DNA of 64,000 bases from the IMG/VR virus record IMGVR_UViG_3300008107_000002; one strand, 5' to 3'. Source of the stretch: a virus. Taxonomy: Duplodnaviria; Heunggongvirae; Uroviricota; Caudoviricetes. The notes under the pieces are model-generated. The model was not told where the DNA came from and did not search any database. It saw only the letters and a list, made by a program, of their open reading frames with translations. This document shows, in pieces, positions 1-57,599 of this stretch; within the stretch, counting starts at the first letter, position 1, and each line of letters begins with the position of its first letter. Position numbers and translations under genes: made by a program.

Positions 1-70
1 TTTAGTAAATCTTGCATGTTAATTCCTTTCCTTTAGTTTATTTAGAATTTCGAGTAATGTCAAATATATT

Positions 71-2770: not shown

Positions 2771-2809
2771 ATACCAACAGGATCATTTGTGGCTGATCAA
2801 ACCTTATTC

Positions 2810-3429: not shown

Positions 3430-3443
3430 TTCTTTTGGAGTAA

Positions 3444-16939: not shown

Positions 16940-16980
16940 TATTTAACTACCAATATTTTCTTATAAAGTTGGTACTTAAT

Positions 16981-17241: not shown

Positions 17242-17723
17242 TTAATTGCCTCATTAAGTGCCGCGGCGTTGTGAGATTTAATTACAGGCTCGGGTATTTC
17301 ACATTCTCCACCTGGCATGAATTTAGTATCATATTTTACAACTTCTCGATCTATATATTGTTTTACAACTAATCCTTTTTCTCGGATTATTCTAACTTTT
17401 TCAGCACCTTTGTTATCTATAACAACATTAGCTTCTTTAGACTGCTGTTCGGCAATTGCCACTTTGGCTTCCATTTCACGTACACGTTCACGCCATTGCA
17501 TCTCTGTGCTATAGCCGCCTTTAAAATAAACTCCGGCAACTAATAAAACAGCACTTATAATTTGTGCAATAGTTACATATTGAGATAAGAACGGAAACGC
17601 TCTTAAAATTTTATTAACAACAAAGAAAGTTAAAAATGATCCAATTATGCCTGTTACAAGAATAGCGTGTACAATAAATTGTATAAAACTATCTGGTAAA
17701 AAATGCAATAACCACATTACCAT
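17238..17723 (-). CDS. membrane protein with periplasmic coiled-coil (inner-membrane spanin or holin candidate)
   Basis: 161 aa; N-terminal TM helices, then charged coiled-coil region MQWRERVREMEAKVAIAEQQSKEA. Confidence 0.55.
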   Translation of the reverse strand: MVMWLLHFLPDSFIQFIVHAILVTGIIGSFLTFFVVNKILRAFPFLSQYVTIAQIISAVLLVAGVYFKGGYSTEMQWRERVREMEAKVAIAEQQSKEANVVIDNKGAEKVRIIREKGLVVKQYIDREVVKYDTKFMPGGECEIPEPVIKSHNAAALNEAIK

Positions 17724-18535: not shown

Positions 18536-19004
18536 TTACTTGGGCACTATCATATCTCATTAAGTCGGCATTTGCCGCATTTTCTTTTTCTATATATCCT
18601 TGATATATATCTTGCATTAATTTTTTTGGCATAGTAATGGTTAATATCCACACAGGGTGTGCATCAATTTTACCTTTTTTAGTGCCGGGACGAAAATCGC
18701 CTGGTTTGTATATTTTTCTTGGTACTAGTACGTGATCTTTTTTATAACCTACCTTACATCCGTAGTCCACAAGCCTTGCACCTCCGTCGGGGTCGGGCAT
18801 ATTTTCATACGGCCACATAAATTTACAGGTAACTGCATACCTGCCAACTTCTGGTCCTGTAACTAACTCTCCGTCAATCCAGTTGTCGAAAACGTAGATG
18901 TCGAGTTCATCAATTACACGTTCAAAGTCTTTGAGTACTTTAAACGCACTGTCGTTGGCAGTAAGAGTTTCAAGATTTTTAATAACGTCAATAATGTCGT
19001 GCAT
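18453..19004 (-). CDS. hypothetical protein
   Basis: 183 aa ORF, first gene of a minus-strand string, divergent from phoH. Confidence 0.5.
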   Translation of the reverse strand: MHDIIDVIKNLETLTANDSAFKVLKDFERVIDELDIYVFDNWIDGELVTGPEVGRYAVTCKFMWPYENMPDPDGGARLVDYGCKVGYKKDHVLVPRKIYKPGDFRPGTKKGKIDAHPVWILTITMPKKLMQDIYQGYIEKENAANADLMRYDSAQVNEKSAAQENIPDEQPTEPAAEAPPQTA

Positions 19005-34216: not shown

Positions 34217-35041
34217 TTAAATTTCAAATAATTGTGTAATCTCGTCTCTTATATCTTCGTAAGGAACAATGTTTATAGCCTGTCCTTGAAAGCCGTCTAA
34301 TATAATTTTTATGGCCTTTTTCATATCTATACCCTTACTTTGTAGGTAGTATAGTTTATCAAAATTAAGATAGGAAGTACTACATCCTTGTGAAGATTCT
34401 ACGCCGTCACAGTCTACGTGTATATCAGGCTTACTGTAACATCTTCCGTTTTCTCCTATAACTAGGTTTGAAGATTCTATGTGGGTTTCGCTGCCGTCCG
34501 ATCCTTGTTCTAAAACAGACATTGATTGAAAAACTGTCTGACTATCTTTGCCTGCTATTCCTAAAATAACTTGATTACTAACGGTATCACAATGTCGATG
34601 AACTGTTTTAGTAATAATTTCGGTATCGCCACCAACTGTATTCATCATAAGACCGTAAGCATTAAATTCGCTACCTTCTTCGGGATACACTTGAATAATG
34701 TGCTTGTTTAACTTTCCGCCCTTGACAAATATTCCAAAATTGATTGCTCCGCCTTCTTCAACATGAACATCGTACAAAAATACTTGTTGAAGTTTGCTAT
34801 CTGCCTCATTAATAACAATAAGATCTAATTTAGCTTCAGCTTTTACATTGATCTTTATATGCTTCGCAAGCAGTTCTTTTTCAGTTGGATTTTGTCTTAA
34901 TACCATCATGTTTACTTGTTTTTCTGCAAGTTCGACAGTATTTGCATCGATAAGTTTAAATTCCTTACCTATGTATTTTTCTGGGCTGTATTGCCAATCC
35001 GGGTCGCCCTTTTCGGCTTTAAGAAAACTGTGAATCGCCAT
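34217..35041 (-). CDS. sufD: SufD/SufB-family (SUFBD beta-helix) protein, short form
   Basis: 274 aa; 23-nt overlap with sufC upstream as in suf operons; C-terminal SufBD-like region (GIFVKGG...QSMSVLEQGSDGSETHIESSNLVIG...YLQSKGI). Confidence 0.7.
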   Translation of the reverse strand: MAIHSFLKAEKGDPDWQYSPEKYIGKEFKLIDANTVELAEKQVNMMVLRQNPTEKELLAKHIKINVKAEAKLDLIVINEADSKLQQVFLYDVHVEEGGAINFGIFVKGGKLNKHIIQVYPEEGSEFNAYGLMMNTVGGDTEIITKTVHRHCDTVSNQVILGIAGKDSQTVFQSMSVLEQGSDGSETHIESSNLVIGENGRCYSKPDIHVDCDGVESSQGCSTSYLNFDKLYYLQSKGIDMKKAIKIILDGFQGQAINIVPYEDIRDEITQLFEI

Positions 35042-35744
35042 CTTCTATAATCCTTTTATATAATTCTTTATTACCCTGTTCTTTAATTTCGCCAGATACT
35101 AGGATGTGTACATGAGTGGGATTTACGGCATCTAATATTTTTTTATTGTTGCTAATAATTAATATACATTTGTCTTCATTAATATAGCTATTTAAAATAG
35201 TAGATACAATATCAATGTCCTCGTCTTCCATGTGTACATCAATATCGTCTATGAGAATAAAATCAGGATCACACATAAGCATTTGTAATAATTCATTCTT
35301 CTTAAGATCTGATTTTGATATATCGTCATAATCCATAAACTTTTGAGAATGAAATTTTTCCATACTTAAAAGGTCGCAGAACGAATTGTAATCTTTTTCT
35401 ATTTCTTGTTCGTTTCGTGGATCTGATCTTGATTTAAGGGTAGCCTTAACAAGTTCAATATTGATGAGTCCGGGTATTTCTGGCGGGTATTGAAATGTTG
35501 AAAACATTCCTAATCTAGCACGATCTTCTGCATCTAATTTTTTAAGATTTTTATTTTTATATGTAATACTGCCTTCTGTTTGTATAAGGCCCGGGTGTCC
35601 GCTTATAAGATGGATTAGACTACTTTTTCCAGATCCTCTTGGACCTAGTATAGCGTGTACTTCTCCTTTTTTAATTTCTAACGAAACATTTTTTAGTAAT
35701 TCTTTATGGTCTATTACGGCAGACACGTTTTTTATTGTTAGCAT
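35019..35744 (-). CDS. sufC: SufC Fe-S cluster assembly ATPase (ABC-type)
   Basis: 241 aa; Walker A GPRGSGKSS, SufC-like LGMFSTFQYPPEIPG, ABC signature and Walker B LILIDD/IDVHMED. Confidence 0.88.
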   Translation of the reverse strand: MLTIKNVSAVIDHKELLKNVSLEIKKGEVHAILGPRGSGKSSLIHLISGHPGLIQTEGSITYKNKNLKKLDAEDRARLGMFSTFQYPPEIPGLINIELVKATLKSRSDPRNEQEIEKDYNSFCDLLSMEKFHSQKFMDYDDISKSDLKKNELLQMLMCDPDFILIDDIDVHMEDEDIDIVSTILNSYINEDKCILIISNNKKILDAVNPTHVHILVSGEIKEQGNKELYKRIIEDGDSQFS

Positions 35745-35751
35745 TTTTTTA

Positions 35752-35780
35752 ATTATAATAGTTTATGACAGATTTGTCAA
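35752..35780 (-). promoter_or_regulatory. sigma70-like promoter TTGACA-17-TATAAT immediately upstream of sufC (near-leaderless)
   Basis: minus-strand TTGACA 35780-35775, 17-nt spacer, TATAAT 35757-35752; -10 ends 8 nt from the sufC ATG. Confidence 0.5.
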
Positions 35781-37210: not shown

Positions 37211-37679
37211 GGAGTTCAGGACTGTATTGAGGAATATTAATTATACTTGATTCTTCTAGTTTTGTCAATTCCAATTCGTATACTCTGCGCCTGAGGTCGC
37301 TACTGCTATATTGGTGTTTTCGCTTATGGTAATGTAATTCAATACCGTTATTAAGGCAATATTGCTTTCCGGTAAAATCTCTATTCAAATATTCTTCACT
37401 CAAAAATCTTACATGAATAGTTTGAGTTTGTATTAAGTTAAGAAGATCTTGTTCTGTTTCGTATACAAGGATTTCATCTACATATTTACAACCTTGTAAC
37501 TGAACATATCTTTCGTAAACACTCTGAACGGGCTTATTTTTTATTCCCGGACGATCTACGGTAGGATCTACTTGTAACGCAACTATTAAATAGTCGCATA
37601 AGTTTTTTTCCATTTTTAACATTGTTACATGTCCTGCATGAAACAAATCAAAAGAACTACAATTAAAACCTATTTTCAT
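37188..37679 (-). CDS. cytidylyltransferase-family nucleotidyltransferase, paralog 2
   Basis: 163 aa; CSSFDLFHAGHV signature; clearly paralogous to 22131..22595 (shared LCDYLIVALQ/LIAALQ...DPT(V/I)DRP...VYET(E)QDL). Confidence 0.8.
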   Translation of the reverse strand: MKIGFNCSSFDLFHAGHVTMLKMEKNLCDYLIVALQVDPTVDRPGIKNKPVQSVYERYVQLQGCKYVDEILVYETEQDLLNLIQTQTIHVRFLSEEYLNRDFTGKQYCLNNGIELHYHKRKHQYSSSDLRRRVYELELTKLEESSIINIPQYSPELLEKYQNS

Positions 37680-39344: not shown

Positions 39345-39548
39345 TTAGCCCAAATTCGCCAAACTTTTTTCATTAGCATCCCATAGTTCAAGAGCTTTTG
39401 CAGGATAGATTTGAACAGAACCTTTTTCGGTAGAACTTTCAACAGCATACCCCTCTGGAGTTAATTCGGTTGAGTATGTGCCAACAATCGTTCCGTGCCA
39501 TTGCGACCCGGAAACTTTTTTAACTAAATCACCTAGTTTGAATTTCAT
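39345..39548 (-). CDS. small hypothetical protein
   Basis: 67 aa; ATGA overlap with upstream queD-like gene; alternative overlapping ORF 39215..39448 cannot both be real. Confidence 0.4.
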
Positions 39549-40051
39549 GCAAATAAGTCCTCATTCCATTCACGATGGCCTTCACGGAAGGCCATGTTAG
39601 CCTGTGTCTCACGAACTTCTACGCGGTAGCACCATAGGCGTTGGCTTTCGCCTTCACCCCAGAAGTCTGGAATGTAAACACCGTTGACATATTTGTACAA
39701 CATGTCTGCTAAACTCTCACAGCCCACTCGAGGTAAGATTGTAAGTTTAGCCAATTTGCGGCGTTCCATTTCTTTGTAGAACTCAAGTTCTGGATCATCA
39801 GCACTGACCAGCGTAGTGTGATCAAACTGATCTTCGAGGATCTTTTTAAGTTCTTTTAAGCCGCCGTAGTCTGCCGCCCAGTTACGGACGTCGAGGTCGT
39901 TGGTTCCAAAATAGAACTTCATTGAAAAACTGTAACCGTGATTTAGATTACAATGCGAGTCAGCTCGCCATTGACGATAAGCGCAAGGGAATGCGTCAAT
40001 GTATTCTTTAGTTGATGTGTACTTATATTGTACTGGTTGAAGATTTGCCAT
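39545..40051 (-). CDS. queD: 6-pyruvoyl-tetrahydropterin synthase / QueD-like protein
   Basis: 168 aa; CxxxHGY motif [10 protein letters not shown] and C-terminal E/H region typical of PTPS/QueD fold. Confidence 0.7.
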
Positions 40052-40182
40052 CTCTAGTCTCCTTTATGTAAAGTAGCAAGTTTGACGACATGCAGAATTT
40101 ATAAAGCGGGGTGAATGACGTAGAAAGACCGCTGTCTTTAATTATAAGCTGTTATTTACGTTATGTCAACAACTATGTATGA

Positions 40183-41109: not shown

Positions 41110-41932
41110 TGTCGTATTCCGTAAGTAATGCACCGTCTCGTATTCGAGTTTGGGTGTTTCTACTATTTAGCAGGATTACAGCAAGCCGCCGTCCTTGATC
41201 TTTAACGATCATTACAAGGCATCCACCTGAGATTCTAATCCAACCTGTTTTACTTAACAAGACGTTGTGCGTGTTAGTAACTAATGAATTGGTAGTTTTA
41301 AAATCTATAAAATATGACTTCTTTTTTCCTTGAACTTGTATTTTTCCGGTAGATTTAGTTGAAAAATTACGTATATCATCGTAATTATATGCGGTACTAG
41401 TAAGTTTAATTAGATCAGTTGCCGTGCTTACATTATTAGGATCTAAACCAGTAGGGTCACTAAAATGTGAATTATACATCTGAAGATGAAACGCCTTTTG
41501 GTTCATTGCCTTTATTGCGGCATCAGTTCCTCCGGGATATAATTCTGCTAATAGTGCCGCCGCCGAATTATCGCTACTCATAAGAGAGAGTAGTAATAAA
41601 TCGGCCCTAGTAACAACTGTGCCTTTGGGCAATTTACTAGTTGTTCCGGTTGGTTTATGAAATACTATTTTTTCTGATAAATCTTGTTTGGCGTCAAGTA
41701 CTACAATAGCAGTCATCAACTTTGTTATTGATGCAATACTTCTTATTTCTTCTTTATTTTTTTCTGTAACAATTTCGCCTGTATCTATGTCTTGCACAAC
41801 ATAGCTAGTGGCGAGAATGTTATTTCGATTATTGTAAGATTTTTTTTGGTTAGCATGTACAGGCGCAGATAGAATAGCCGATATAATTAGGGCATTAATT
41901 ACGTTTTTCAACAATCTTATCAATAAGTCCAT
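41081..41932 (-). CDS. D-alanyl-D-alanine carboxypeptidase (peptidase S11, PBP5/6-like) with signal peptide
   Basis: SxxK (SITK), SxN (SSDN) and KTG (KTGWI) motifs in order; signal peptide [27 protein letters not shown] if the start is at 41932. Confidence 0.85.
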
Positions 41933-42482
41933 ATTCAAGGGTTTCCTGGGCACTCATAAATTTATCCCTTTCCATGTCCTGAATTAACTGCCCATATGTT
42001 TTACCCTTGCTATTATGTTTAACATAAATGTTGGTTAAATTTTCTTTCATTTTTAGGATCTCACGTACTTGGATTTCCATATCTGTAGCCTGTCCGCCTG
42101 CTCCGCCACTGGGCTGATGTATCATGTGACGAGCGTTGGGAAGCATATAACGTTTTCCTGGTGCACCTGCTTGTGCTAGTAGACTACCCATAGAACAGGC
42201 TTGACCCATAACATAGGTGCAAACATCTGGCTTGATAAACTGCATGGTATCATAGATGCTCATACCTGCTGTTACAACTCCACCGGGACTATTAATATAA
42301 AAATTGATATCCTTGTTGCTATCTTGGCTTTCAAGATGTAAAAACTGTGCAACAATAACATTGGCACTGTGATCATCAACTGGTCCATTAAGAAATACAA
42401 TTCGCTCATTGAGCAATCGACTATAAATGTCAAACGCACGTTCTCCTGTGCTTGTTTTTTCAATTACCATTGGAATTAACAT
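41895..42482 (-). CDS. clpP: ClpP serine protease subunit
   Basis: 195 aa; catalytic Ser context [10 protein letters not shown], His in MIHQP, Asp-containing C-terminal region; high similarity to bacterial ClpP throughout. Confidence 0.92.
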
Positions 42483-44961: not shown

Positions 44962-44990
44962 ATTATAACAGAGAATTTACCAGTTGTCAA
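44962..44990 (-). promoter_or_regulatory. sigma70-like promoter TTGACA-17-TGtTATAAT
   Basis: minus-strand TTGACA 44990-44985, 17-nt spacer, extended -10 TGTTATAAT ending at 44962; shares the downstream ATATATACATA block with the promoters at 57101 and 57571. Confidence 0.6.
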
Positions 44991-45000: not shown

Positions 45001-45074
45001 TGGAGCGGGATAGCGGAATCGAACCGCTGACTATAACTTGGAAGGATATCGTTTTACCATTAAACTAATCCCGC
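45001..45074 (-). tRNA. tRNA, probably tRNA-Gly (anticodon UCC), with encoded CCA
   Basis: minus-strand GCGGGAT...TCC...AGCGGTTCGATTCCGCTATCCCGCTCCA; 7-bp acceptor stem, GTTT/AAAC D-stem, T-arm AGCGG-TTCGATT-CCGCT, anticodon loop CUUCCAA (one mismatch in anticodon stem). Confidence 0.8.
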
Positions 45075-47024: not shown

Positions 47025-47864
47025 TTAAGTCCATAGAGATTCTCTAATTTTAATAAGACGAATCATCATTGCTTCGTCTTCTTTGGCGTAGTCTGCTTCA
47101 ATCTTTTGAAGAAGTTTATGGGCCGCGTTACTGGCCTTGCGATCTTCTTTGTCTTTTGAGTTCAAGCTGGACAAGAAACTTCCGGGATATTTTACTCGCA
47201 TAGCTTCGCAGTGGGCACTCCATCCACTAGCATCATAAGGATCAGGACGATTACGATAGGTAACAGTCCACCAAGTGTAAAGCTCAATAATTTCTTTAGC
47301 GGCTTTAGCTTGGTATGTTGGTTCTCCGTAACCCTTTTCAGTAGGGTTAGATCCCATGTTTTCATCAACAACTAGACTACTTGCCCACTTGAGATATTCC
47401 ATGCCGGCTTCTGGGCAACGCCAGGTTCTCCAACGTAGCCAACCTTTACGCCACCATGGAGTTTCAAATTTAGTCTTTGCTTCGTCACTCCAGATGCAGT
47501 GATGCCATGCTTGTTCTATTTCAACAAAGTCCACAAGCTCGTTGAAAAGACAAGGAAGGAAACGATTGCCCACATCGCACCACTTACCGGGCTGTATGTC
47601 TCTAGGATGGGCCGTAAGAGCATGGCTGTGAGAGACCCAGCGGTTATTAATATAATAGCGTATGTCATTTAGTCGGTCCGGTACGTAGTAAACAAATCGT
47701 TGGATATAATCCAACCCATCTTCTGCCAACCAATAGCGAAAATTGTGTTTCATTTTTGCAGTATTAGTCCATTCATCCCACTCTTCGGATGTACCTGCCT
47801 TAAGTTTGGCGGTGCCCCGTAGCCAGTCGGCAAATTTACTACATGTCCAATAATGCGATCTCAT
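47025..47864 (-). CDS. hypothetical Trp-rich protein
   Basis: 279 aa ORF with unusually many Trp (WxxW patterns). Confidence 0.55.
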   Translation of the reverse strand: MRSHYWTCSKFADWLRGTAKLKAGTSEEWDEWTNTAKMKHNFRYWLAEDGLDYIQRFVYYVPDRLNDIRYYINNRWVSHSHALTAHPRDIQPGKWCDVGNRFLPCLFNELVDFVEIEQAWHHCIWSDEAKTKFETPWWRKGWLRWRTWRCPEAGMEYLKWASSLVVDENMGSNPTEKGYGEPTYQAKAAKEIIELYTWWTVTYRNRPDPYDASGWSAHCEAMRVKYPGSFLSSLNSKDKEDRKASNAAHKLLQKIEADYAKEDEAMMIRLIKIRESLWT

Positions 47865-47875: not shown

Positions 47876-48580
47876 TTACTTTCTTTCGCCAAACAACTGT
47901 AACAGATTCAAGAACAAGTTGATAAAGTCCATATATAGAGTTAATGCCCCACGAACTTCAGCAGAGTCACTAGTTTCTACACTGAGTTCTTCACGAATCT
48001 TTTGTGTGTCGTAGGCAGTTAGGCCCAAAAAGATAATAATAGCCAGTGAGCTAATAACCATTTGCATTACTGTAGATCCAATAAAGATATTAACAATGCT
48101 GGCAATGATAATTGCAATCAATCCAACAAACATAAACTTACCAACGCTATCTAGATTCTTTTTAGTAAAATATCCGTAGCCGCTCATTACACCAAACAGG
48201 ATGGCCGCACCCATGAATGCACTGACAATCGATCCCATGTTGAACACAGCAAATATCATGCTAAAGCTCAGACCCATAAGTGCCGCAAATCCATGTAGGC
48301 ATAACTGTGCCACACCCTTGCTGGGATTGTTGCCTAGCACATAACTGACACCAAAGATTGCCGCTAGTGGAGCAAAAATTACAATCCACTTTAGCACACC
48401 TGTAAAAAAGAATTGTAGCAACTCTGGACTGGTCCCTATAAAATAACTAACCAACATTGATACAACGACTGCTAGACTCATATGTCCGTAGACACGACCC
48501 ATCGCTTTATTAATTTCGCCTGCAGAGCGATAGTTTAACATACCGCCATCTGTGTAGTTTGCACCAAACATATTATTCAT
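47876..48580 (-). CDS. Bax-inhibitor-1 / YccA (TMBIM) family 7-TM membrane protein
   Basis: 234 aa; about 7 hydrophobic helices and characteristic C-terminus ALTLYMDFINLFLNLLQLFGERK (cf. YccA/BI-1 LYLDIINLFLSLLRILG). Confidence 0.75.
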   Translation of the reverse strand: MNNMFGANYTDGGMLNYRSAGEINKAMGRVYGHMSLAVVVSMLVSYFIGTSPELLQFFFTGVLKWIVIFAPLAAIFGVSYVLGNNPSKGVAQLCLHGFAALMGLSFSMIFAVFNMGSIVSAFMGAAILFGVMSGYGYFTKKNLDSVGKFMFVGLIAIIIASIVNIFIGSTVMQMVISSLAIIIFLGLTAYDTQKIREELSVETSDSAEVRGALTLYMDFINLFLNLLQLFGERK

Positions 48581-49077
48581 TCCTTATAGTAATTAAAATT
48601 AAGTACACATCTAAATTTTGTGTCTGTACTAGATGTACCTGTGTGTTTTATTGTAGCATCAAATTCAACAAATCTGTTGGCTATAGATTCTATTTTTTGT
48701 CCATTTTCAAATAACGTATATCCATTATTTGAATTGATGTAATAAATGCCCGTGTATCCGGCAAATTTTGGTCCGTCTACGTGCAATCCATATTCGAATA
48801 TATCTTGAGTAACTGTTGTAAGGTTTGCCTTTATCCTTAAAATTGCAGTTGGACCTATTCTGTCTATTATTGGTCTAATAAGATTTATATGATTACTTCT
48901 TGGTTGATATTCAAGATACAACGTATGGGTAAGCTGAAAATTTAATAACGACTCAGATCCATTATTGGAAACCTTAAGGTCATTAGTATACCAAGGAAAA
49001 TCTCCAGAAAGCATTTCATCTTGTATTTTAGAAAACACTTCTTGCGGCAAAAAATTATCAATTACGTTAATAATCAC
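48577..49077 (-). CDS. possible 2OG-Fe(II) oxygenase-superfamily protein
   Basis: 166 aa; HVDGPKF (HxD) and a distal His in IKHTG; weak. Confidence 0.4.
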   Translation of the reverse strand: MIINVIDNFLPQEVFSKIQDEMLSGDFPWYTNDLKVSNNGSESLLNFQLTHTLYLEYQPRSNHINLIRPIIDRIGPTAILRIKANLTTVTQDIFEYGLHVDGPKFAGYTGIYYINSNNGYTLFENGQKIESIANRFVEFDATIKHTGTSSTDTKFRCVLNFNYYKE

Positions 49078-49093
49078 AATACATCTCTAACAA

Positions 49094-49402
49094 TTATTTA
49101 ACAAATGGACCAAATTTTAAATAATATTCTGTAAGTTTTTTCTTTTCTAGTTCTGCAACAATTACATATTGATATCCGTATTGGTATGGATCCGTATGCC
49201 TGTGCCATTCGGGTTTATCTATTGCGTGTTCCATAATAAACTTACCCTTTTCGCTTTCTTGCCATTCCCAAAGTGGTTGTGCGGCATATAAATCCGGATC
49301 TTCAACATCGCCCATTGAAAAATGATGAACGGTTACTTTGTGTATTTCTTCAACAAATCTTTGACCGTCTTCGTCAAATACTCGCCATCTTACTTTTCCC
49401 AT
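49094..49402 (-). CDS. hypothetical protein
   Basis: 102 aa ORF. Confidence 0.5.
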   Translation of the reverse strand: MGKVRWRVFDEDGQRFVEEIHKVTVHHFSMGDVEDPDLYAAQPLWEWQESEKGKFIMEHAIDKPEWHRHTDPYQYGYQYVIVAELEKKKLTEYYLKFGPFVK

Positions 49403-49698
49403 ACCAAGTAATATACTGTTATAAATTTTTCAGCATCACGCTTACTGTTAAAGTACCACATATCCCATGCGGTACGGTGTGCTGTTTTCCAAGTCTCGAG
49501 AGTTTGTAGTGCCCAATTTATTCTTTCGTCGAGCTTACTTGAGTTGTAATGATTACCCGCATCGTCTACGCTGGCAAACTCTTCTATTAGTCTAATATGC
49601 CACTTACGATTTTGTCCCTGATATAATTTAGGTCGAATTGTAGGTAGACTAGATTCGGCCCAAACCTTCATTACTTCGTCAAGCGTTTGAGCTATCAT
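49390..49698 (-). CDS. hypothetical protein
   Basis: 102 aa ORF. Confidence 0.5.
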   Translation of the reverse strand: MIAQTLDEVMKVWAESSLPTIRPKLYQGQNRKWHIRLIEEFASVDDAGNHYNSSKLDERINWALQTLETWKTAHRTAWDMWYFNSKRDAEKFITVYYLVWEK

Positions 49699-50191
49699 TC
49701 TTTTTTCGTTTTACAAACTGACGTTTTTTGGGTTTATGGGAACCGCCACTATTCAATGGGCTGTGCATCTGTGCTTTTTCTGCTCTTTCAATCGCGGCAT
49801 GTATTTGTTCAGCAGTTGGCTCATTTTCTTCCTGGAATTGATCTTGATTAATTTCTTTAACAATTTCAGTAAGCGCATTAGGCATTTCTACAGGCATCTT
49901 CATGCCTACCTTTTTTAGATATCGACTATTCTCACGAACTTGATTTATGTTTAATTTACGAAACAAGTTAATAGGACCGGTTGCATCTGGACTGATTTGA
50001 TCAAAGTCTCGAACTTCGTAGATGTCATCAATTCCTGTTTTTAGTTCGATAATGTATAATTCTCGATCTGGACTGTGTCCTTCTTTTAGATGTTCAAGGT
50101 CGATAACCTCTACAATTCTGCCTTCAACAAGTTTAGGTTCGCCTAAATGGATCCATACTTTATCTTTAATATTATATTCTTTTTTCTTCAT
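49679..50191 (-). CDS. hypothetical protein
   Basis: 170 aa ORF; basic C-terminus. Confidence 0.5.
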   Translation of the reverse strand: MKKKEYNIKDKVWIHLGEPKLVEGRIVEVIDLEHLKEGHSPDRELYIIELKTGIDDIYEVRDFDQISPDATGPINLFRKLNINQVRENSRYLKKVGMKMPVEMPNALTEIVKEINQDQFQEENEPTAEQIHAAIERAEKAQMHSPLNSGGSHKPKKRQFVKRKKNDSSNA

Positions 50192-50553
50192 GTCATTAAA
50201 TAGGCAATACCTATGTAGGTTAATTGATGAGCCATTTGATCTAGTCCTAGGTGATTCCAGAAAGCAGGAGTATTAATATCTCTGTTACTGTAATTCATTT
50301 TTGCCCAATCAATATGATAATGTAGTACAAAATCAATAAAGGCAAGTATGCCAGCTAGAGCAATGTATGGAAGTCCGGCAATTGCTATTAAACAAAACAT
50401 TGTTCCTATTGCATGTTTTGCACTATGGTTTATTCCCGGGCCATCACCGTATATACCTTTGCTGGCTACTTCTATAGCAGTTTGATCAACAAAGTCTATG
50501 TACCAATGCTTAACCTGTAATAGGACCAGCAATAGTAGTGCTTCGTTAATCAT
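50188..50553 (-). CDS. small membrane protein (3-4 TM)
   Basis: 121 aa; hydrophobic helices LLLLVLLQV, IGTMFCLIAIAGLPYIALAGILAFI. Confidence 0.5.
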   Translation of the reverse strand: MINEALLLLVLLQVKHWYIDFVDQTAIEVASKGIYGDGPGINHSAKHAIGTMFCLIAIAGLPYIALAGILAFIDFVLHYHIDWAKMNYSNRDINTPAFWNHLGLDQMAHQLTYIGIAYLMT

Positions 50554-50717
50554 TCTGCTACCTTTTCCTTTGTCTTAAGTTCTAATAGATCTTTAACAAA
50601 TTTAATGGCCTTACGGTCTGTATCATAGACGAACTCTTGATCTTCGTCGTCGTCACTACGCAGAGTAACAATAACACCGTTTCGTACTTTGCGTATTTCA
50701 ATAGACTCGTAATTCAT
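50550..50717 (-). CDS. small acidic ORF (55 aa) coupled by ATGA to the downstream membrane protein
   Basis: ATG 50717-50715, stop TGA overlapping the next ATG; fills an otherwise empty 170-nt gap. Confidence 0.3.
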   Translation of the reverse strand: MNYESIEIRKVRNGVIVTLRSDDDEDQEFVYDTDRKAIKFVKDLLELKTKEKVAE

Positions 50718-50726
50718 AATTTACCT

Positions 50727-51521
50727 TTATTGTCCTTCAACGGACAAGTTATAGTTAAAGTGGAAGATACCGATATGTGCAACTTCTCTGCTGAGTTCTT
50801 GATCGCACCAAATATCGAAACCTGCTTTTTGTACTTGTTTACAGAAGAAAATGTCCTCACCAATTTCTAAATTAAGTTCAGGAACAAATTCTTGTAGGTA
50901 GTACGGGCCTTGGATTTTTTCATAAACAGATCGATGTGCCAAGACCATTCCGTGAGGAAGAACATCGATCTTTTCCATTGGAGGACTTTGATCAGTAGTT
51001 ACAAATTCTGTAAAACTACCCGGAGCTCCTGACATTCCCGTAAAGTTGGGATTAGGAAAACGGCGTCTACGATAATTAGCACCTACAATTGGTACATTTC
51101 TTTTGAGTAGCTTTAATGGCGCATCGATTGGAAACTTCATGTCGCTGTCGACCCACCAAATGTAGTCAAAATCGCTTTTCATAAAGATATCAGCAAGATT
51201 ACGTCTAGCAATAGTAATTACACTACCAATGTTAAATGCACAATTGATCTTAATACCGTTAGCAACCATGTTAGCGGCGGCCATAGCCAGGTGTTGTGCA
51301 AATTCAGCATTAACCATTTCCATGGCCGGAACAGCAATCATTACACTAGGTTGTTTGTTTGTTTGCGGCAATTGCTTTGGAGCACCTGCTGGATTTGAAT
51401 TACTTTGTCCAGGAAAAGGATTAAATTTAGTCAGAGGCGGTTTTGTTGCCGCGCCGGCTGGCATTTGACGCTTTTCTGGAATTGTTTGTTTTGTTGGGAT
51501 ATTAAGTTTACCTTTAGTCAT
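50727..51521 (-). CDS. possible glycosyltransferase (DxD-containing)
   Basis: 264 aa; WWVDSDMKFP (DxD-like) after an N-terminal Pro/Lys-rich region; weak. Confidence 0.45.
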   Translation of the reverse strand: MTKGKLNIPTKQTIPEKRQMPAGAATKPPLTKFNPFPGQSNSNPAGAPKQLPQTNKQPSVMIAVPAMEMVNAEFAQHLAMAAANMVANGIKINCAFNIGSVITIARRNLADIFMKSDFDYIWWVDSDMKFPIDAPLKLLKRNVPIVGANYRRRRFPNPNFTGMSGAPGSFTEFVTTDQSPPMEKIDVLPHGMVLAHRSVYEKIQGPYYLQEFVPELNLEIGEDIFFCKQVQKAGFDIWCDQELSREVAHIGIFHFNYNLSVEGQ

Positions 51522-51564
51522 TGCGATCCTTGTTTTTTATAATTATCTTACCGCAGGGGTCACA

Positions 51565-52155
51565 TCACGTGAAACTGAGTTCCCGGCTTACTGTCTCTTT
51601 TACAACTTCATGGTCCATCCAGGTAACATCTGGATTCTTACCCCAATTGACCTTCATTGTTTCTTGCCATTCGTGTGCCTTTTCAAGAGCTTCATCCATT
51701 GATGATGCTTCTACATCAAACACAAAACGAATATCCAAATCTACTTTAAATCTATCGTTGCTCATAATACTTTCCTGATTAAAATTGATATTGCTGTAAT
51801 TTATATTACCGATGTCTTCTAGATATTCTAGAATAAGTTCTTCAGTGTCTACATGGGTGAAAGACACGTTATCCCAAGCATTATTAGGATCTAAACCTCT
51901 ATCATTACTTTCTTTATAATATGCATCTCGAAAATCTAAATTAATCCATCTGTATGCCTGCGTGTGATTCGGCACCTCTACTACAATTTCATAAACAGTT
52001 TGTGTTTCTCGATCAAAGACGCAATGAGCGTAGGGCTTTTTGTCAATGTTTTGGAAATCAAGAATTTGTGAATTAGTTCCATAACATTGCCAACCGTAGT
52101 CACTACCTCCAGTGATCCTACTTCCAGCGGCATTGATTACATTAGTAAAGTTCAT
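51565..52155 (-). CDS. hypothetical protein
   Basis: 196 aa ORF with its own promoter. Confidence 0.55.
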   Translation of the reverse strand: MNFTNVINAAGSRITGGSDYGWQCYGTNSQILDFQNIDKKPYAHCVFDRETQTVYEIVVEVPNHTQAYRWINLDFRDAYYKESNDRGLDPNNAWDNVSFTHVDTEELILEYLEDIGNINYSNINFNQESIMSNDRFKVDLDIRFVFDVEASSMDEALEKAHEWQETMKVNWGKNPDVTWMDHEVVKETVSRELSFT

Positions 52156-52160
52156 AGTTC

Positions 52161-52189
52161 ATTATATTGTAAATTATAACAGTTGTCAA
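52161..52189 (-). promoter_or_regulatory. sigma70-like promoter TTGACA-17-TATAAT (near-leaderless)
   Basis: minus-strand TTGACA 52189-52184, spacer 17, TATAAT 52166-52161; the ATG of the downstream gene is at 52155. Confidence 0.5.
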
Positions 52190-52190
52190 A

Positions 52191-52382
52191 TTAATTTAAA
52201 CCAAAATGGGCTTTGATAGAAGAGATTGCAGAAGTCTCCTCGGCCGCCTCAAGAACAGTGATACATTCATTAATGCCCGATAAAAGCAGTCCAAACGTAT
52301 CAATCCCTGTTGTCGGATAAAGTCCATCAACCCTAACTTGGATCTGTTGCGCTTCGAATAGTTTTTTTAAATTTTCATTCAT
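52191..52382 (-). CDS. small hypothetical protein
   Basis: 63 aa ORF. Confidence 0.4.
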   Translation of the reverse strand: MNENLKKLFEAQQIQVRVDGLYPTTGIDTFGLLLSGINECITVLEAAEETSAISSIKAHFGLN

Positions 52383-52632
52383 TATTTTCTTCCTCTAGTT
52401 GATTCATGAATAGATTAAGTTGCTCAATTAAATTTTGACAACCTTTACGATTCATAGTAATTGTTGAAATACCAGTTTTAAAAGTTATACGACCTTCACT
52501 GGTTATTCCTATACTGTAGTATTCTTGTTCCGATTTTGGCGGTTCAATAAGAGGAACCGGAGCACGTTCTGGAAACGGGACTACGTTATAACCTTTAGCA
52601 CGTTCTTCTCGACTTTTAAACCAATTAAACAT
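52375..52632 (-). CDS. small hypothetical protein
   Basis: 85 aa ORF. Confidence 0.4.
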   Translation of the reverse strand: MFNWFKSREERAKGYNVVPFPERAPVPLIEPPKSEQEYYSIGITSEGRITFKTGISTITMNRKGCQNLIEQLNLFMNQLEEENNE

Positions 52633-52918
52633 CTTTAACTCCAGATTTCTTTTTTGCTAATTCTCGTTCGCATTGAGCAATGGCGGCGTCAAGCATGGCA
52701 GTTGTAATTTCTTTGGGATTCATTCCAAAATGCAGTTTAATTAAATCTACTCCCTGCCCGCGACTAATCATATCACGCAACATGGGATTCAATGCTATGC
52801 AACATTCCCTAACAATCAACTCGGCGAACTTTTCTATGAACTTTGTCTGCTTTTCCCAAGAATCACCCTGAGTTGTTTTAGCAGCCTCTTCCCAAAGTTT
52901 TTGAATTCGTTCGTTCAT
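52625..52918 (-). CDS. member 1 of small paralogous MNERIQ/KFAELIV protein family
   Basis: 97 aa; MNERIQKLWEE...KFAELIVRECC...LHFGMNPKE; shares a 32-nt identical DNA block with the copy at 60573-60604. Confidence 0.6.
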   Translation of the reverse strand: MNERIQKLWEEAAKTTQGDSWEKQTKFIEKFAELIVRECCIALNPMLRDMISRGQGVDLIKLHFGMNPKEITTAMLDAAIAQCERELAKKKSGVKDV

Positions 52919-53049
52919 TTAATGCTTTCCTACATTCTATTAACAAATCTCTCACTGCTGTATGATTAGCAAGTTCTGGATTAAACAGTCCACCCATTGC
53001 TAGGTAATCTGTAATTCTATTAACTAGGTCCAGAACTTGCTTGTCCATA

Positions 53050-53844
53050 TTACTTGGGCATCATCAATGCGTTGAAGTTACTTGGAACAACAATGGTCTG
53101 CACTTGTCCGTTCTTAATACCTTCACTGATGTTCAACATGGCCTGTGCCTGCATAAACGCAATTGACGCCCCTGAGTTGTTAGCCAATGCTGCCATACGA
53201 CGACTTTCAGCTTCGGCAGTCTTAACTTCAACTTCCTTCTGCTTCAATTCGTTCTTTGAACGAACCAGTGCGTTGGCACTCTCAACAACTGAGTCTGCTG
53301 GTACTACATTACGAATCAACACTTGGCTAATCATAATAGTACCGTCCAACTTTTCTTCTGCCAAGTTGCGAACGATTTCGTCTTGAATGAACTTTTCCAT
53401 TTCACCGCGATTGTCTGCCATATCTAGTGCTTCATACTTTCGTGCTGCCTTGTAGATAGCATTACGAGCATTTTGAACAATGTAGTTGTACATCACATAG
53501 GTGTCGCCTTTGAACTCTGCGTGGAAAGCCTTGTTCTTTGTAGCATACAGTTCTGATACTTGTTGTGGGTTGATGTTGTAGACAACCACAGCATCCAAGT
53601 CTTTCATCGTCGAGTTATCTTTGGCCACTGGAGTCATATTCTCCAATGAGACATTAACATCCTTGATAGGAAATGTCAGTACGTCACCGATCAACACCTG
53701 ATTGAACGAACCCGGAAGTAGTTCTCCAGGCTGTACTTGTTTGTCAAAGCCAACTCGAACACCAACTTCACCAGTTTCAATACGAGTACAACCTGTAGCA
53801 AGAACAGCGGCGGCAAGAACGGAGAGAGTCAAAATACGTTTCAT
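53050..53844 (-). CDS. SPFH/band-7 (prohibitin/HflKC/stomatin-like) lipoprotein
   Basis: signal peptide with lipobox MKRILTLSVLAAAVLATGC; SPFH-like core then Ala/Glu/Lys-rich coiled-coil (KQKEVEVKTAEAESRRMAALA); an alternative upstream start at 53925 would add a TM helix. Confidence 0.75.
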   Translation of the reverse strand: MKRILTLSVLAAAVLATGCTRIETGEVGVRVGFDKQVQPGELLPGSFNQVLIGDVLTFPIKDVNVSLENMTPVAKDNSTMKDLDAVVVYNINPQQVSELYATKNKAFHAEFKGDTYVMYNYIVQNARNAIYKAARKYEALDMADNRGEMEKFIQDEIVRNLAEEKLDGTIMISQVLIRNVVPADSVVESANALVRSKNELKQKEVEVKTAEAESRRMAALANNSGASIAFMQAQAMLNISEGIKNGQVQTIVVPSNFNALMMPK

Positions 53845-53940
53845 TTTAAATAATACCTTGTGAAAAAAGAAAAAAGCAAACAACGAAACCCAAAGCAAAA
53901 TACAAAGGGCGAAGATAACGATCATTAACCATATTAATCC

Positions 53941-54117
53941 TTAAAATAAGATTACCAATCCGACCATTGCCACTAGTGCTAGTGATGCAACAATTATACT
54001 ATATACAATGGACTTTGTCAAGGTCCAACGTTCCTTGCCGTTGAGATTCCTCCAAGCAGTAATGCCAAAGTGGATAAGAACGGCAAGGATAGCAAAGGCT
54101 AGCCAAAGTCTAATCAT
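53941..54117 (-). CDS. small membrane protein (58 aa), ATGA-coupled to rIIB
   Basis: two hydrophobic helices; start overlaps the rIIB stop. Confidence 0.3.
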   Translation of the reverse strand: MIRLWLAFAILAVLIHFGITAWRNLNGKERWTLTKSIVYSIIVASLALVAMVGLVILF

Positions 54118-54914
54118 ATATTAGTTGTACCCCAACTAGTTGGGCTGTTATAACTGTTGGCATTTTCCTGCACAGGTGCAGTAAATGCTTCTTCAGGTTC
54201 GACACCCAATTCACCGATTACTTCATAGCGGCAAGCACGACCTTTAGCTTCGTTGTAGTCAGTTGGAATGCTCACAACATCACGTGGATTAATCTTAACA
54301 ATAACAGTACGATCACCACCAAAGCACGACAAGTAACTCATACCGCAGAAGTGCAGACCTGTTGAGCAGGTTTGATCCTTGTTGTCGTCTACCTTGTTAC
54401 GTTCCATTTCAACTACACGACCAACGGAGTTATCCATTGTACCGCTATGCACATCCATAAAGTTATCACGAACTTTCTTGTAAGCAAGGAAATACCCGTC
54501 TGGAGTAATTGGCAAGTTATTCTTCTCCAAGAAGCCATACAGTTCGGTCACTGCTCGCTTGCTAGGGTTAGCATACAGGTTTTCCATAAAGTTAACCATT
54601 GGTTCAACTGGAAAGCCTTCTTGCAACATTTCAATCATTCGACGGGCAAGTCCAGTATTAAGGACCTCACCTTTCCAGAACAATGTTTCGCCTTGGATGC
54701 TAACATTGCCAGCACCATAGTTCAAAACAACCTTTTTAGGTTCGATGACATCTTTAACAGTATCCCAATCTCCAGCCTTAATAGCTTCTAATACCTTGGG
54801 ATAGGTAATATGTGTTTTAGAAATAGTGTGTGACTTATTTCCAATAACGACAACAACATTGCTGCCTTGAATGATAAACGGATAGCTCATTTTATACGCC
54901 TTTCTTTGCGTCAA
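54114..54914 (-). CDS. rIIB: rIIB-like protein
   Basis: 266 aa ORF immediately downstream of, and overlapping, rIIA as in T4-like phages; no independent motif. Confidence 0.55.
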   Translation of the reverse strand: MTQRKAYKMSYPFIIQGSNVVVVIGNKSHTISKTHITYPKVLEAIKAGDWDTVKDVIEPKKVVLNYGAGNVSIQGETLFWKGEVLNTGLARRMIEMLQEGFPVEPMVNFMENLYANPSKRAVTELYGFLEKNNLPITPDGYFLAYKKVRDNFMDVHSGTMDNSVGRVVEMERNKVDDNKDQTCSTGLHFCGMSYLSCFGGDRTVIVKINPRDVVSIPTDYNEAKGRACRYEVIGELGVEPEEAFTAPVQENANSYNSPTSWGTTNI

Positions 54915-57069
54915 TTAAATTTACATATTCGGCAATATCGCTTGCTTCAACGCGGTAAGTGCTCAGACTTTTCAATAACGGATACCTACGATTCACGTCA
55001 TTAAGTTTTTGTTGATATTTTGTAACCAATGCATCCGGGCTAATATTAGCGTTAGGAGCAAATCGGCGGAACAAACGATCAATATTATATGTGTAACCTT
55101 TAAACTTTTCAACACCTTTAAGTTCATTTACAATTTCTGCATACGGACTCTTGGCATCGATTAGCGTTATTACACTACTATTATACTCTAAAATGTCTGC
55201 ATGGTCAAGTTTTGATTTAACCAAACTCATCAACAATTTACTTGTATCTTTAGCAGTTAACAATGAGGCAATGTAATCTTCAAAGTTGACCCAGTTTGAC
55301 AACTTCTTAATCTCTTCAATGTCGCCTTTACGAACACCGTAGATATCACCTTTGAACAAATCGGGCAAAGCCTTAACATCGTCATACAATTCCTTACCAC
55401 TGGCATAACCTTTGGCACTTTGCATACTGAACCCGCTTAACGGAACATAGTAAAATGTAACAGCGGCATCAAATGCATCAGCCTTACCAGCGTCACGCCA
55501 TACCATGTCATCATCACTACGACGATATCCACCACCACCACGACGTACCAATTGCAGAATTGTTACATTCTTGCCCATGTTCTCACGTTCACGTTGTTGC
55601 AAGGTACTTGCGGCAAAACGTCGAGCAGTGGGCGGTTCTTGGATAGCGGCAAAGAATGCTTGAGTATTCATTGCCTTGTTCTTGTCTACCTTCTCCAAGA
55701 TCCAGATAGCACGGCTGTACACATCACACCCAACTTCTTTATAATGATATCGGGCACGTTCGCCGGCACCTGTCTTTAGGTCGTTGATGATAAAGTGGCA
55801 AGTGTCGTCTACTGGAATGTGCCATTCTTGCCATGTGATGTAATGTCCATTGGCATTTTTGGCACGATTGTCAGCATACTCTGTGACGCTCTTACCATTG
55901 CTCACTGTTTTAGTATGACGAGCTTGTTGTAACAGACGAATCTGAATGTTCCAGTTTGTAGCAAGGTCTTCAACTTTGAAGTCAAAACGAGCCATTTGGC
56001 TGTACTGTTTAGTATTGTAAGTTGGCAAGTTAGTGTCGAGCGCATACTTGGCCACAGCCGCAGTCCACAACTTATGCTCTTTCTTCTTAAACAAGAACAC
56101 AGCACGATCCCACAGATTAGGGATAGCATCTGCTTCTCGAGCAATCACAACTGCCAATGCCGTATTGAGTTGTTCCAACTTGGCTTTAATAGCCGCAATG
56201 GTTGAAGGAATGTAGCTCAGACCTTCACGTGACGCTTGGAAGTCCAACTCGCCGATAGCAAAGTGCATTTCAAGTCCGCAAGTCAACAAGTTTCGCACAT
56301 CCTGGTCAATGCTTTGATCAGCGGCAGGGATTTCAATAGGATAAGCAATATTACCCATGACAGCCACGCTACCACGACGACCTTCGTTCTTGTAACTATG
56401 CACACCGGGAATGATGTCGCGGCTTTCGTAATCAATCAGATCAAACACAAAGTCATTATTACCGTTGACAACAGGCTTAAGAACAAAGTGACGATATACA
56501 CTACGAGCTTCTTGACGGAACTTGTCAAAGTCATAACGGTCGTTGACTGAAAACTTAACTTCAACACCCGTTGGCTCGTCGGTAGCCTCTTGCATCATTA
56601 ATGCAATGCTCGGGACTCCGTCACCGTTAATGAAAGCAGAGTAAATGCCCTTAACGCCGTTTTGGATAGCAGTTACAGTAAAATTGTCAGTATAACTAAA
56701 AGGGCTTTTGGATCCCAATCCAAGAGCTCCGATAAATTCGTTGCTGGCTGTTTTTGTACTTTCAAAGTACGTGGTGTAGATTTGTGTGACTTGTTTATGT
56801 GAGAGGCCAGTCCCATAGTCTCGAATAGAAAACCAAGGTTCTAAAGTGTTTGGGAGATGAACATCAAAAGGGGTATCCTTCTTGTCCGCGGCCGCATGTG
56901 AGTCAACGGCATTACAAGAAAGTTCACGTACAATAGCACGGATCTTGTTAGCATACAAGCCCGAACTCAAAATACTGAATGCTTTGGCACTGTTACGAAT
57001 ACGGAATTCGCCAATTTCACTGACATTAGAAACAATGGCTTCGTTGACTGGAGCATTGTTAAGAATCAT
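54892..57069 (-). CDS. rIIA: rIIA-like protein (GHKL ATPase-fold N-terminal domain)
   Basis: 725 aa (same length as T4 rIIA); NSAKAFSILSSGLYANKIRAIVRELSCNAVDSH and NEFIGALGLGSKSPFSYTDNF match rIIA Bergerat-fold boxes. Confidence 0.8.
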   Translation of the reverse strand: MILNNAPVNEAIVSNVSEIGEFRIRNSAKAFSILSSGLYANKIRAIVRELSCNAVDSHAAADKKDTPFDVHLPNTLEPWFSIRDYGTGLSHKQVTQIYTTYFESTKTASNEFIGALGLGSKSPFSYTDNFTVTAIQNGVKGIYSAFINGDGVPSIALMMQEATDEPTGVEVKFSVNDRYDFDKFRQEARSVYRHFVLKPVVNGNNDFVFDLIDYESRDIIPGVHSYKNEGRRGSVAVMGNIAYPIEIPAADQSIDQDVRNLLTCGLEMHFAIGELDFQASREGLSYIPSTIAAIKAKLEQLNTALAVVIAREADAIPNLWDRAVFLFKKKEHKLWTAAVAKYALDTNLPTYNTKQYSQMARFDFKVEDLATNWNIQIRLLQQARHTKTVSNGKSVTEYADNRAKNANGHYITWQEWHIPVDDTCHFIINDLKTGAGERARYHYKEVGCDVYSRAIWILEKVDKNKAMNTQAFFAAIQEPPTARRFAASTLQQRERENMGKNVTILQLVRRGGGGYRRSDDDMVWRDAGKADAFDAAVTFYYVPLSGFSMQSAKGYASGKELYDDVKALPDLFKGDIYGVRKGDIEEIKKLSNWVNFEDYIASLLTAKDTSKLLMSLVKSKLDHADILEYNSSVITLIDAKSPYAEIVNELKGVEKFKGYTYNIDRLFRRFAPNANISPDALVTKYQQKLNDVNRRYPLLKSLSTYRVEASDIAEYVNLIDAKKGV

Positions 57070-57100: not shown

Positions 57101-57129
57101 ATTATAGCATGGTTTTACCATGCTGTCAA
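57101..57129 (-). promoter_or_regulatory. sigma70-like early promoter TTGACA-17-TGcTATAAT upstream of rIIA
   Basis: TTGACA 57129-57124, 17-nt spacer containing palindrome gcatgg-tttta-ccatgc, extended -10 TGCTATAAT; SD AAAGGTG before the rIIA ATG. Confidence 0.6.
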
Positions 57130-57570: not shown

Positions 57571-57599
57571 ATTATACAAGAAAAAACCAGAACTGTCAA
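57571..57599 (-). promoter_or_regulatory. sigma70-like promoter TTGACA-17-TATAAT
   Basis: TTGACA 57599-57594, spacer 17, TATAAT 57576-57571; 27 nt upstream of the ATG of 57134..57544. Confidence 0.55.

Follow-up and report, generated by a model that had tools for sequence, protein, structure and literature searches.

Two separate genes of freshwater jumbo phages, encoding a YbhL-type TMBIM protein and an SPFH lipoprotein, as candidates for action on the host envelope

We analyzed two genes carried by a 64,000-nt stretch of phage DNA (IMG/VR record IMGVR_UViG_3300008107_000002), which is referred to below as the window and whose numbering is used unless otherwise stated. One encodes a BI-1 protein of the TMBIM (Bax1-I) family, the other a lipoprotein of the SPFH (Band_7) family (Table 1). 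A sequence-only reading of the window had proposed that these are YccA-like and HflK/HflC/QmcA-like proteins forming a phage module that tunes the host membrane protease FtsH. Both open reading frames (ORFs) were indeed found at the positions given there, on the minus strand, and profile searches confirmed both families. The affiliation to YccA and to HflK/HflC/QmcA, as well as the module itself, were weakened by the analysis or found to lack support. The best explanation, to which we assign a probability of about one half, is that they are two separate host-envelope genes of widespread, divergent freshwater jumbo phages.

The BI-1 protein matched the profile PF01027 with 186 bits (E=9e-55, cutoff 34.1) over positions 2-207 of 207, and its residues 35-231 could be aligned with the sequence of the solved BsYetJ structure (E=7.5e-10). 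Comparison with the E. coli paralogs gave an identity of 38.6% with YbhL (full length, E 1.6e-46) as against 24% with YccA, and the protein scored 44.2 bits against the NCBIfam YccA equivalog NF007765, far below the 353-bit cutoff of this profile. In a multiple alignment, the aspartates of the AYDTQK and LYMDFINLF motifs were common to the phage protein, YbhL, alphaproteobacterial homologs and YetJ, whereas YccA carries E and S at the positions of D191 and D218. These two phage residues align with the pH-sensor pair D171/D195 of YetJ and were invariant in 36 phage homologs. On the basis of the identities to YbhL and YccA, the equivalog score and the di-aspartate pair, the protein is classified as a channel-type TMBIM and not as a YccA ortholog. 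JGI labels the gene 'FtsH-binding integral membrane protein', but this name was transferred and is no evidence of FtsH binding. To our knowledge, FtsH modulation has been demonstrated for YccA alone, and YccA and YetJ are the only bacterial TMBIM proteins to have been studied.

The known protein closest in type is E. coli YbhL (COG0670, Bax1-I family), which has the same length of 234 aa and shares the motifs AYDTQK and LY(L/M)DFINLF. It differs from the phage case in that no alphaproteobacterial ybhL leader RNA was found at the phage BI-1 gene and in that the closest cellular relatives of the latter are alphaproteobacterial. B. subtilis YetJ (PDB 4PGR), a pH-sensitive Ca2+-leak TMBIM channel, has both sensor aspartates in common with the phage protein, but the identity is about 25% and the phage N-terminal tail is about 30 aa longer. 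E. coli YccA resembles the phage protein in its Pfam family, in the helix number predicted for the latter and in its cytoplasmic N-terminal tail. No PHROG family matched BI-1, and PADLOC gave no defence-system match for BI-1, for the SPFH protein or for the small transmembrane (TM) protein encoded upstream of the latter.

The SPFH ORF matched PF01145 (Band_7) with 67.4 bits (E=2e-18, cutoff 23.6) over profile positions 2-175 of 176, and phrog_200 'lipoprotein' with an E-value of 1.4e-34. The longest ORF of this gene, 53050-53925, comprises 291 aa. Starting instead at 53844 (Met28 of the longest ORF) gives MKRILTLSVLAAAVLATG directly followed by C, a lipoprotein signal. Homologs of the family, 263-272 aa long, begin at the equivalent position, and the cysteine that follows the LATG of the lipobox (Cys19) was at least 90% conserved in 87 sequences and kept in five out of five distant phage homologs and in the copy of the bacterium Parvibium lacunae. 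Because of this signal, the starts of the homologs and the conserved cysteine, 53844 is the better predicted start, as the sequence-only reading had it. The 27 in-frame codons upstream of it (53845-53925) form a hydrophobic extension that is kept in close relatives, which is why gene callers give lengths of 264, 282 or 291 aa; since it lies downstream of the promoter at 53993-54021, it would be transcribed.

The protein is thus predicted to be held in the membrane by a lipid anchor placed directly ahead of the SPFH domain. The residue at position +2 after the putatively lipidated cysteine was T, G or S, and in no member of the family was it Asp. According to the Lol sorting rule of E. coli, a lipoprotein without Asp at +2 is directed to the outer membrane. 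This suggests an SPFH protein located in the outer membrane and away from FtsH, although the rule is species-specific and serves here as a caution only. It applies directly to the homolog of Cba120, as this is an E. coli phage.

We then compared the SPFH protein with its cellular counterparts. No NCBIfam profile matched it, and a PDB sequence search gave nothing meaningful, either with the protein alone or with a profile of 87 sequences. The family is compact: it was represented by 343 clusters at 50% identity among 1.84 billion representatives, nearly all of 260-290 aa, and it does not extend to HflK/C. The hhalign probabilities were 75% for QmcA (over the C-terminal half only), 2% for HflC and 0.3% for HflK. 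An AlphaFold2 (AF2) monomer model, with a mean pLDDT (predicted local distance difference test) of 75 and values of 82-94 in the core, comprises the SPFH domain, two helices (184-222 and 226-244) and a strand at the C-terminus. In Foldseek searches this model matched full-length prohibitin, HflK/C, stomatin, erlin and QmcA about equally well (E 1e-10 to 1e-6), at 11-19% identity and over alignments of 240-300 columns. The segment CTRIETGEVGVR that follows the putatively lipidated cysteine aligns with the EGERG..RFGK segment following the TM helix of HflK/HflC. Judged from sequence and model together, this appears to be a complete SPFH protein in which a lipid anchor replaces the TM helix, with no specific tie to HflK/C. 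It belongs to a separate, compact family that is as distant from HflK/C as from prohibitin, stomatin and QmcA, so that the label 'HflK/HflC/QmcA-like' lacks support.

The likeness to the HflK/HflC-FtsH complex (PDB 7WI3, 7VHQ, 9CZ2) lies in the SPFH domain, the long helix and the C-terminal segment, and in an SPFH domain that is predicted to face the periplasm and starts right after the anchor (Foldseek E 6e-10 to 1e-6). Unlike HflK/HflC, the phage protein is encoded by a single gene with no K/C pair, is predicted to be lipid-anchored and has 264 instead of 334-419 aa. QmcA, its best sequence-level match among SPFH proteins, belongs to the QmcA-YbbJ/SPFH-NfeD operons (PDB 8Z5G), in which an SPFH gene likewise goes together with, and is co-transcribed with, a gene for a small membrane protein. 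The phage partner gene is located upstream, however, and encodes a bare two-TM hairpin that lacks the OB-fold NfeD domain. Moreover, the SPFH domain of QmcA faces the cytoplasm, whereas that of the phage lipoprotein is predicted to face the periplasm. The other phrog_200 lipoproteins (Ackermannviridae and Acinetobacter phages; Cba120 orf126, Sajous1 gp200) are 26-46% identical to the window protein and share both its lipobox and the upstream two-TM gene. In contrast to them, the window protein falls within a clade from freshwater whose members are 80-100% identical to one another. No function has been assigned to phrog_200 lipoproteins (PMC13239085, PMC10892097).

The partner gene upstream of the SPFH gene encodes a protein of 58 aa in which a hydropathy scan detected two TM-like segments (1-23 and 31-58); Pfam and PHROG gave no match for it. 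Homologs of this gene were found upstream of the SPFH gene in 64-67 of about 82 viral loci. In Synechococcus phage BUCT-ZZ01, Cba120 (orf127A), phiAB441 and Melin, two-TM ORFs of 58-92 aa that look unrelated to it abut the SPFH gene. The chromosome of Parvibium lacunae carries, between aspS and a NUDIX gene, an SPFH copy that is 49% identical to the phage protein, preceded by an uncalled and unannotated ORF for a 60-aa two-TM protein. The two-TM gene and the SPFH gene are therefore a conserved two-gene unit, present in five unrelated phage lineages and one bacterium.

In order to determine whether BI-1 and the SPFH protein also belong together, we analyzed their distribution. In IMG/VR, BI-1 was present on more than 590 contigs at 84-92% identity and the SPFH protein on more than 470 at 80-97%, so that homologs of both are found in related phages on hundreds of contigs. 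Given these homologs and the profile matches, neither outcome that the sequence-only reading had named as refuting it came about. Contigs with either gene reach 300-370 kb, their sample identifiers match freshwater metagenomes, and one contig of 185 kb carries the SPFH protein at 100% identity. Among GenBank phages, BI-1 gave only 8 weak matches, all to short, unannotated 'phage' records, while a tblastn search with the SPFH protein retrieved 193 records, including Ackermannviridae, Acinetobacter phages and BUCT-ZZ01; none of these 193 was among the 8. Megablast with the 7.2-kb region gave no match at all in GenBank phages, indicating that there is no cultured close relative. The closest 'bacterial' BI-1 copies (69-89% identity) are located on contigs of metagenome-assembled genomes (MAGs) that also bear other genes of the window phage, and are thus on phage contigs. 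True cellular homologs, mostly alphaproteobacterial, were 41-48% identical. Two of the MAG contigs, assigned to 'Haliscomenobacter sp.' (NZ_JBBAKG010000031.1, 70 kb, and NZ_JBBAKG010000057.1, 39 kb), each carry a BI-1 copy of 88-89% identity together with genes of the phage group; they may be misplaced phage contigs or a hint at the host.

In the window, BI-1 and SPFH are separated by 4.5 kb and about a dozen genes. For the relatives we counted loci with at least 6.5 kb of flank, taking flanks of up to 10 kb. The SPFH gene was found in 3 of 48 BI-1 loci and BI-1 in 2 of 58 SPFH loci (partner within 6.5-10 kb), so that the two lie within 10 kb of each other in only about 5% of relatives. Both occurred together on at least seven contigs, where the spacing was 4.7-4.8 kb, about 26 kb, 22-34 kb or, on a 343-kb contig, about 40 kb. 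Gene order is shuffled among the relatives that share the gene pool of the window; per locus of about 20 kb, the median number of other window genes was 3.5-4, and their identity was about 59%. As few loci pair the two genes and as their spacing varies widely, BI-1 and SPFH are two separate genes and not a linked module. As to the novelty claimed for the combination, no phage TMBIM seems to have been described so far, and BI-1 is the more interesting of the two, whereas the SPFH protein was already known in phages (phrog_200, annotated in Ackermannviridae).

We next measured selection against the window sequence, using about 80 relatives per gene. For BI-1, the proportions of nonsynonymous (pN) and synonymous (pS) differences were 0.086 and 0.63, with a ratio of the corresponding rates (dN/dS) of about 0.066; for SPFH the values were 0.075, 0.60 and about 0.061. 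The neighbouring genes gave dN/dS values of 0.12-0.30 and identities of 49-63%. Of the genes shared at a locus, BI-1 showed the highest conservation in 15 of 16 cases, and SPFH in 28 of 28. In four loci the DNA polymerase was 54-63% identical (pN 0.25-0.31, pS 0.73-0.81) while BI-1 was 87-90% identical (pN 0.07-0.09, pS 0.66-0.72). Across this divergent group of freshwater jumbo phages, the rate at which both genes evolve is 3-4 times lower than that of the DNA polymerase. Such strong purifying selection over about 80 relatives each indicates that neither is a chance ORF. Synonymous sites are near saturation in both, so the high identity reflects protein constraint. A recent horizontal transfer as the source of this identity was considered and rejected, since the pS values (0.58-0.72) are close to those of the DNA polymerase (0.70-0.81).

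The window contains eight perfect sigma-70 sites (TTGACA-N17-TATAAT), all between 35.7 and 57.6 kb, on the coding (minus) strand and just ahead of an ORF. Allowing up to one mismatch, 11 sites were observed against 1.1 expected by chance. These promoters likely mark 35-58 kb as an early region. One of them lies inside the two-TM gene, where it is placed to drive SPFH, and in 55 of 77 relatives the 300 nt ahead of SPFH contain a promoter with at most one mismatch, as compared with about 7% of windows in the background. BI-1 lacks a dedicated promoter: sites ahead of it were found in 6 of 80 loci, equal to background. Between 52155 and 47025, neighbouring ORFs overlap or have at most 43 nt between them, and no other consensus promoter occurs there; the block running from 52155 to about 46316, BI-1 included, would therefore be transcribed as one from the promoter at its head. 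Canonical -35/-10 promoters fit Proteobacteria better than Bacteroidota, and those of the window suggest a host that uses promoters of this kind.

These observations lead us to propose the following scheme. BI-1, being of the YbhL/YetJ type with D191 and D218, may form a pH-gated leak channel for cations (Ca2+/H+) in the inner membrane, by which this membrane and the ion balance of the infected cell would be kept stable until the phage has finished. It would then be the phage counterpart of the cytoprotective cellular TMBIM proteins and of poxvirus vGAAP, and is probably cytoprotective. It might also engage FtsH as a slowly processed substrate, in the manner of YccA and TMBIM5 with their respective AAA proteases. 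The SPFH gene forms a cassette with the two-TM gene ahead of it and would be expressed from its own sigma-70 promoter. Once lipidated at Cys19, the SPFH domain would sit directly on the periplasm-facing leaflet of the membrane, and the helices and the C-terminal strand may come together as a ring or cage, as is typical of SPFH proteins, around a patch of membrane that would thereby be fenced off. The cassette thus probably builds a periplasm-facing scaffold.

Several points weigh against this scheme. The functions of the phage copies are deduced throughout from their relatives, and no description of a function for YbhL was found in the literature searched. The Arg60 latch located in TM2 of YetJ has no clear counterpart: the regions compared are NNPSKG and MRRRKA, in which K88 corresponds to YetJ K63. 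The AF2 model of BI-1, built with 36 close homologs, has seven long helices but a pLDDT of 44 and is unreliable, and a crude hydropathy scan gave overlapping segments. The seven-TM fold is therefore predicted from sequence alignment alone, the gap-poor alignment to the seven-TM YetJ structure supporting seven helices. The SPFH model is that of a monomer and moderately confident, with pLDDT values below 60 over the first 60 residues and at the C-terminus. The putative oligomer may lie in the inner or in the outer membrane. That both genes are early and read by host RNA polymerase is suggested by the promoter consensus only. Finally, the extreme conservation would also fit tight binding to a conserved host protein such as FtsH.

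A narrower version of the channel reading, which we regard as rather unlikely, makes BI-1 an early 'anti-death' TMBIM channel that, like vGAAP, would prevent the collapse of host membrane potential and ion balance in abortive infection or stress-induced lysis. This would explain why BI-1 evolves more slowly than the DNA polymerase. Virus-encoded TMBIM proteins are known: poxvirus vGAAP (a viral TMBIM4) and prasinovirus BI-1. vGAAP has been described as a functional anti-apoptotic ion channel and TMBIM proteins as cytoprotective channels (PMC6163359; PMC4416878). A 2018 survey of viral transport genes (PMC6163359) reports TMBIM in poxviruses only and no phage TMBIM, and our literature search found no paper on one. 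The vGAAP and prasinovirus genes are, however, recently captured host-like genes of eukaryotic viruses, whereas BI-1 of the window belongs to an old, phage-specific lineage of a bacterial virus. If this explanation were true, suppression of cell death by TMBIM proteins would be a strategy common to bacterial and eukaryotic viruses, and the poorly understood bacterial YbhL-type proteins would gain a testable function.

The cassette may alternatively be an early device for superinfection exclusion or envelope sealing that would keep other phages from bringing in DNA or damaging the membrane and that would be unrelated to BI-1 or FtsH. Precedents exist, as phage lipoproteins such as Llp of T5 act in exclusion, and so do T4 Imm and Sp, which pair a small two-TM protein with a periplasmic factor. 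The strong promoter of the cassette, conserved in relatives, its position directly after rIIA-rIIB in the window, its spread over unrelated phage families with different hosts and the missing +2 Asp, which suggests sorting to the outer membrane, all point in the same direction. In Cba120 the cassette follows a phrog_1510 'superinfection exclusion' gene, but this name is an annotation only. No exclusion phenotype has been reported, and the role has been called unclear (PMC13239085). The very slow evolution is unusual here, as genes of phage-phage conflict tend to diversify, and a homologous cassette is found among the housekeeping genes of a bacterial chromosome. We therefore consider this explanation unlikely.

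The proposal of the sequence-only reading, namely that both proteins bind the host FtsH complex and together adjust membrane proteolysis and stress signalling, seems improbable to us in view of the data. On this model BI-1 would inhibit FtsH as a YccA-like pseudo-substrate, and the SPFH protein would form an HflK/C-like cage. An FtsH connection of either protein is possible by analogy at the level of the families: YccA, which forms a complex with FtsH and HflKC, is not only a substrate of FtsH but also inhibits it, and can be cross-linked to HflKC (PMC7876416), TMBIM5 inhibits the FtsH homolog AFG3L2 (PMC9379554), and HflK/C and prohibitins, which cage AAA proteases, are both among the top structural matches of the SPFH protein, whose lipid-anchored domain would face the periplasm as theirs does. 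The proteostasis context also held: the window encodes ClpA, ClpP and DnaJ, and relatives carry ClpX and DnaK about 5-8 kb downstream of SPFH. BI-1 and SPFH do co-occur on some contigs, as seen above, and the conservation of both suits a very conserved partner. However, BI-1 is not of the YccA type, the SPFH protein has no specific affinity to HflK/C and may be sorted to the outer membrane under the E. coli rule, away from FtsH, about 95% of the relatives with flanks of sufficient length show no linkage between the two genes, and the 193 GenBank phages have the cassette without BI-1. Furthermore, none of 76 bacterial loci with the closest BI-1 homologs had ftsH, hflK, hflC or qmcA within 6 kb. 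In relatives, the apparent FtsH matches located about 6 kb downstream of the SPFH gene proved to be ClpX, which is followed by DnaK.

That one or both genes are passenger DNA (recent host captures, mis-binned bacterial sequence or decaying morons) is hardly credible: both families are mainly cellular and close BI-1 copies lie in bacterial MAG bins, but those copies are on phage contigs, which also led us to reject capture from the host, the closest true cellular homologs are far more distant, both genes occur on hundreds of viral contigs and are more conserved than the DNA polymerase, and the selection analysis (dN/dS of about 0.06 with synonymous sites near saturation) refutes it for practical purposes.

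With two separate host-envelope genes as the preferred explanation, the constraint on BI-1, stronger than that on the DNA polymerase, implies that the protein does something the virus needs inside the bacterial cell. Bacterial TMBIM proteins being almost uncharacterised, this phage lineage offers a compact system for finding out what a YbhL-type copy does. The two-TM/SPFH unit is present in culturable phages (Cba120, Acinetobacter phages) and is thus open to direct laboratory study. An 'FtsH-binding' label on genes of this kind should be read as transferred annotation and not as evidence.

Table 1. Positions of the two genes, of associated promoters and of other features in the window and in related sequences.
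Feature	Position	Strand	Evidence or remark
BI-1/TMBIM (Bax1-I), YbhL/YetJ-type, 234 aa, D191 + D218 di-aspartate pair	47876..48580	minus	Pfam PF01027, 9e-55
SPFH/Band_7 lipoprotein, 264 aa: predicted signal peptide and lipobox (Cys19), SPFH domain, coiled-coil helices, C-terminal QTIVVPS strand	53050..53844	minus	
Small two-TM hairpin protein, 58 aa, upstream partner of SPFH	53941..54117	minus	hydropathy
Sigma-70 promoter inside two-TM gene, placed to drive SPFH	53993..54021	minus	12/12 consensus match
Sigma-70 promoter heading packed co-directional block (52155 to about 46316) that includes BI-1	52161..52189	minus	12/12 consensus match
All perfect sigma-70 promoters	35752-35780, 37240-37268, 40141-40169, 44962-44990, 52161-52189, 53993-54021, 57101-57129, 57571-57599	minus	
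DUF3307-like multi-pass membrane protein, between BI-1 and SPFH	50188..50553	minus	phrog_2470 'membrane protein', 2e-15
rIIB homolog	54114..54914	minus	phrog_609 and phrog_3803 'RIIB lysis inhibitor', 7e-80
rIIA homolog	54892..57069	minus	phrog_612, 3e-128; perfect consensus promoter 57101-57129 ahead
ClpA	11282-13549		
Peptide deformylase (listed with ClpA, ClpP, DnaJ)	13533-14033		
DnaJ	14042-14908		
ClpP	41895-42482		
ClpX and DnaK, locus of one relative (own numbering)	15517-16725 and 16820-18721		
Two-TM + SPFH pairs in other sequences (own numbering)	8739-9747; 1235-2235; 1171-2250; 1166-2262; 6805-7819		

The phage origin of the window is evident from genes for a T4-like DNA polymerase, rIIA/rIIB and a baseplate/structural protein of 2270 aa. 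Besides ClpA, ClpP and DnaJ, the window encodes peptide deformylase, PhoH and SufBD/SufC-like proteins. The gene content is similar to that of moraphages, whose core genes include ClpA and PhoH (PMC12619734). Upstream of the cassette, the stop of rIIB overlaps the start of the small TM gene by 4 nt. Between BI-1 and SPFH, the DUF3307-like ORF matched its Pfam profile at 1e-4, slightly under the cutoff.

Several genes adjoin BI-1. An ORF at 48577-49077 (166 aa) overlaps its start by 4 nt and matched phrog_274 'DNA endonuclease V' (1e-51), a label that looks doubtful because there was no Pfam match. On the other side, the ORF at 47025-47864 encodes a Trp-rich protein of 279 aa that had no match in Pfam or PHROG. 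In 32-34 of 82 relatives, the gene immediately downstream of BI-1 is a homolog of this ORF, which is therefore the commonest BI-1 neighbour, and the same arrangement is seen on a Crocinitomicaceae MAG contig. In relatives, BI-1 also adjoins genes for GTP cyclohydrolase I, two PTPS genes and a radical-SAM/B12 gene (stretch 1-4526, own numbering), which look like 7-deazaguanine-type modification genes; the ORF at 39545-40051 of the window is homologous to these PTPS genes.

Elsewhere in the window, the gene for a SufBD-core protein (34217-35041) adjoins that for a SufC-like ABC ATPase (35019-35744), and the two look like a phage-borne pair for iron-sulfur cluster assembly. A tRNA-Gly gene (anticodon TCC; 45001-45074, minus strand) was the sole RNA gene detected in the window.

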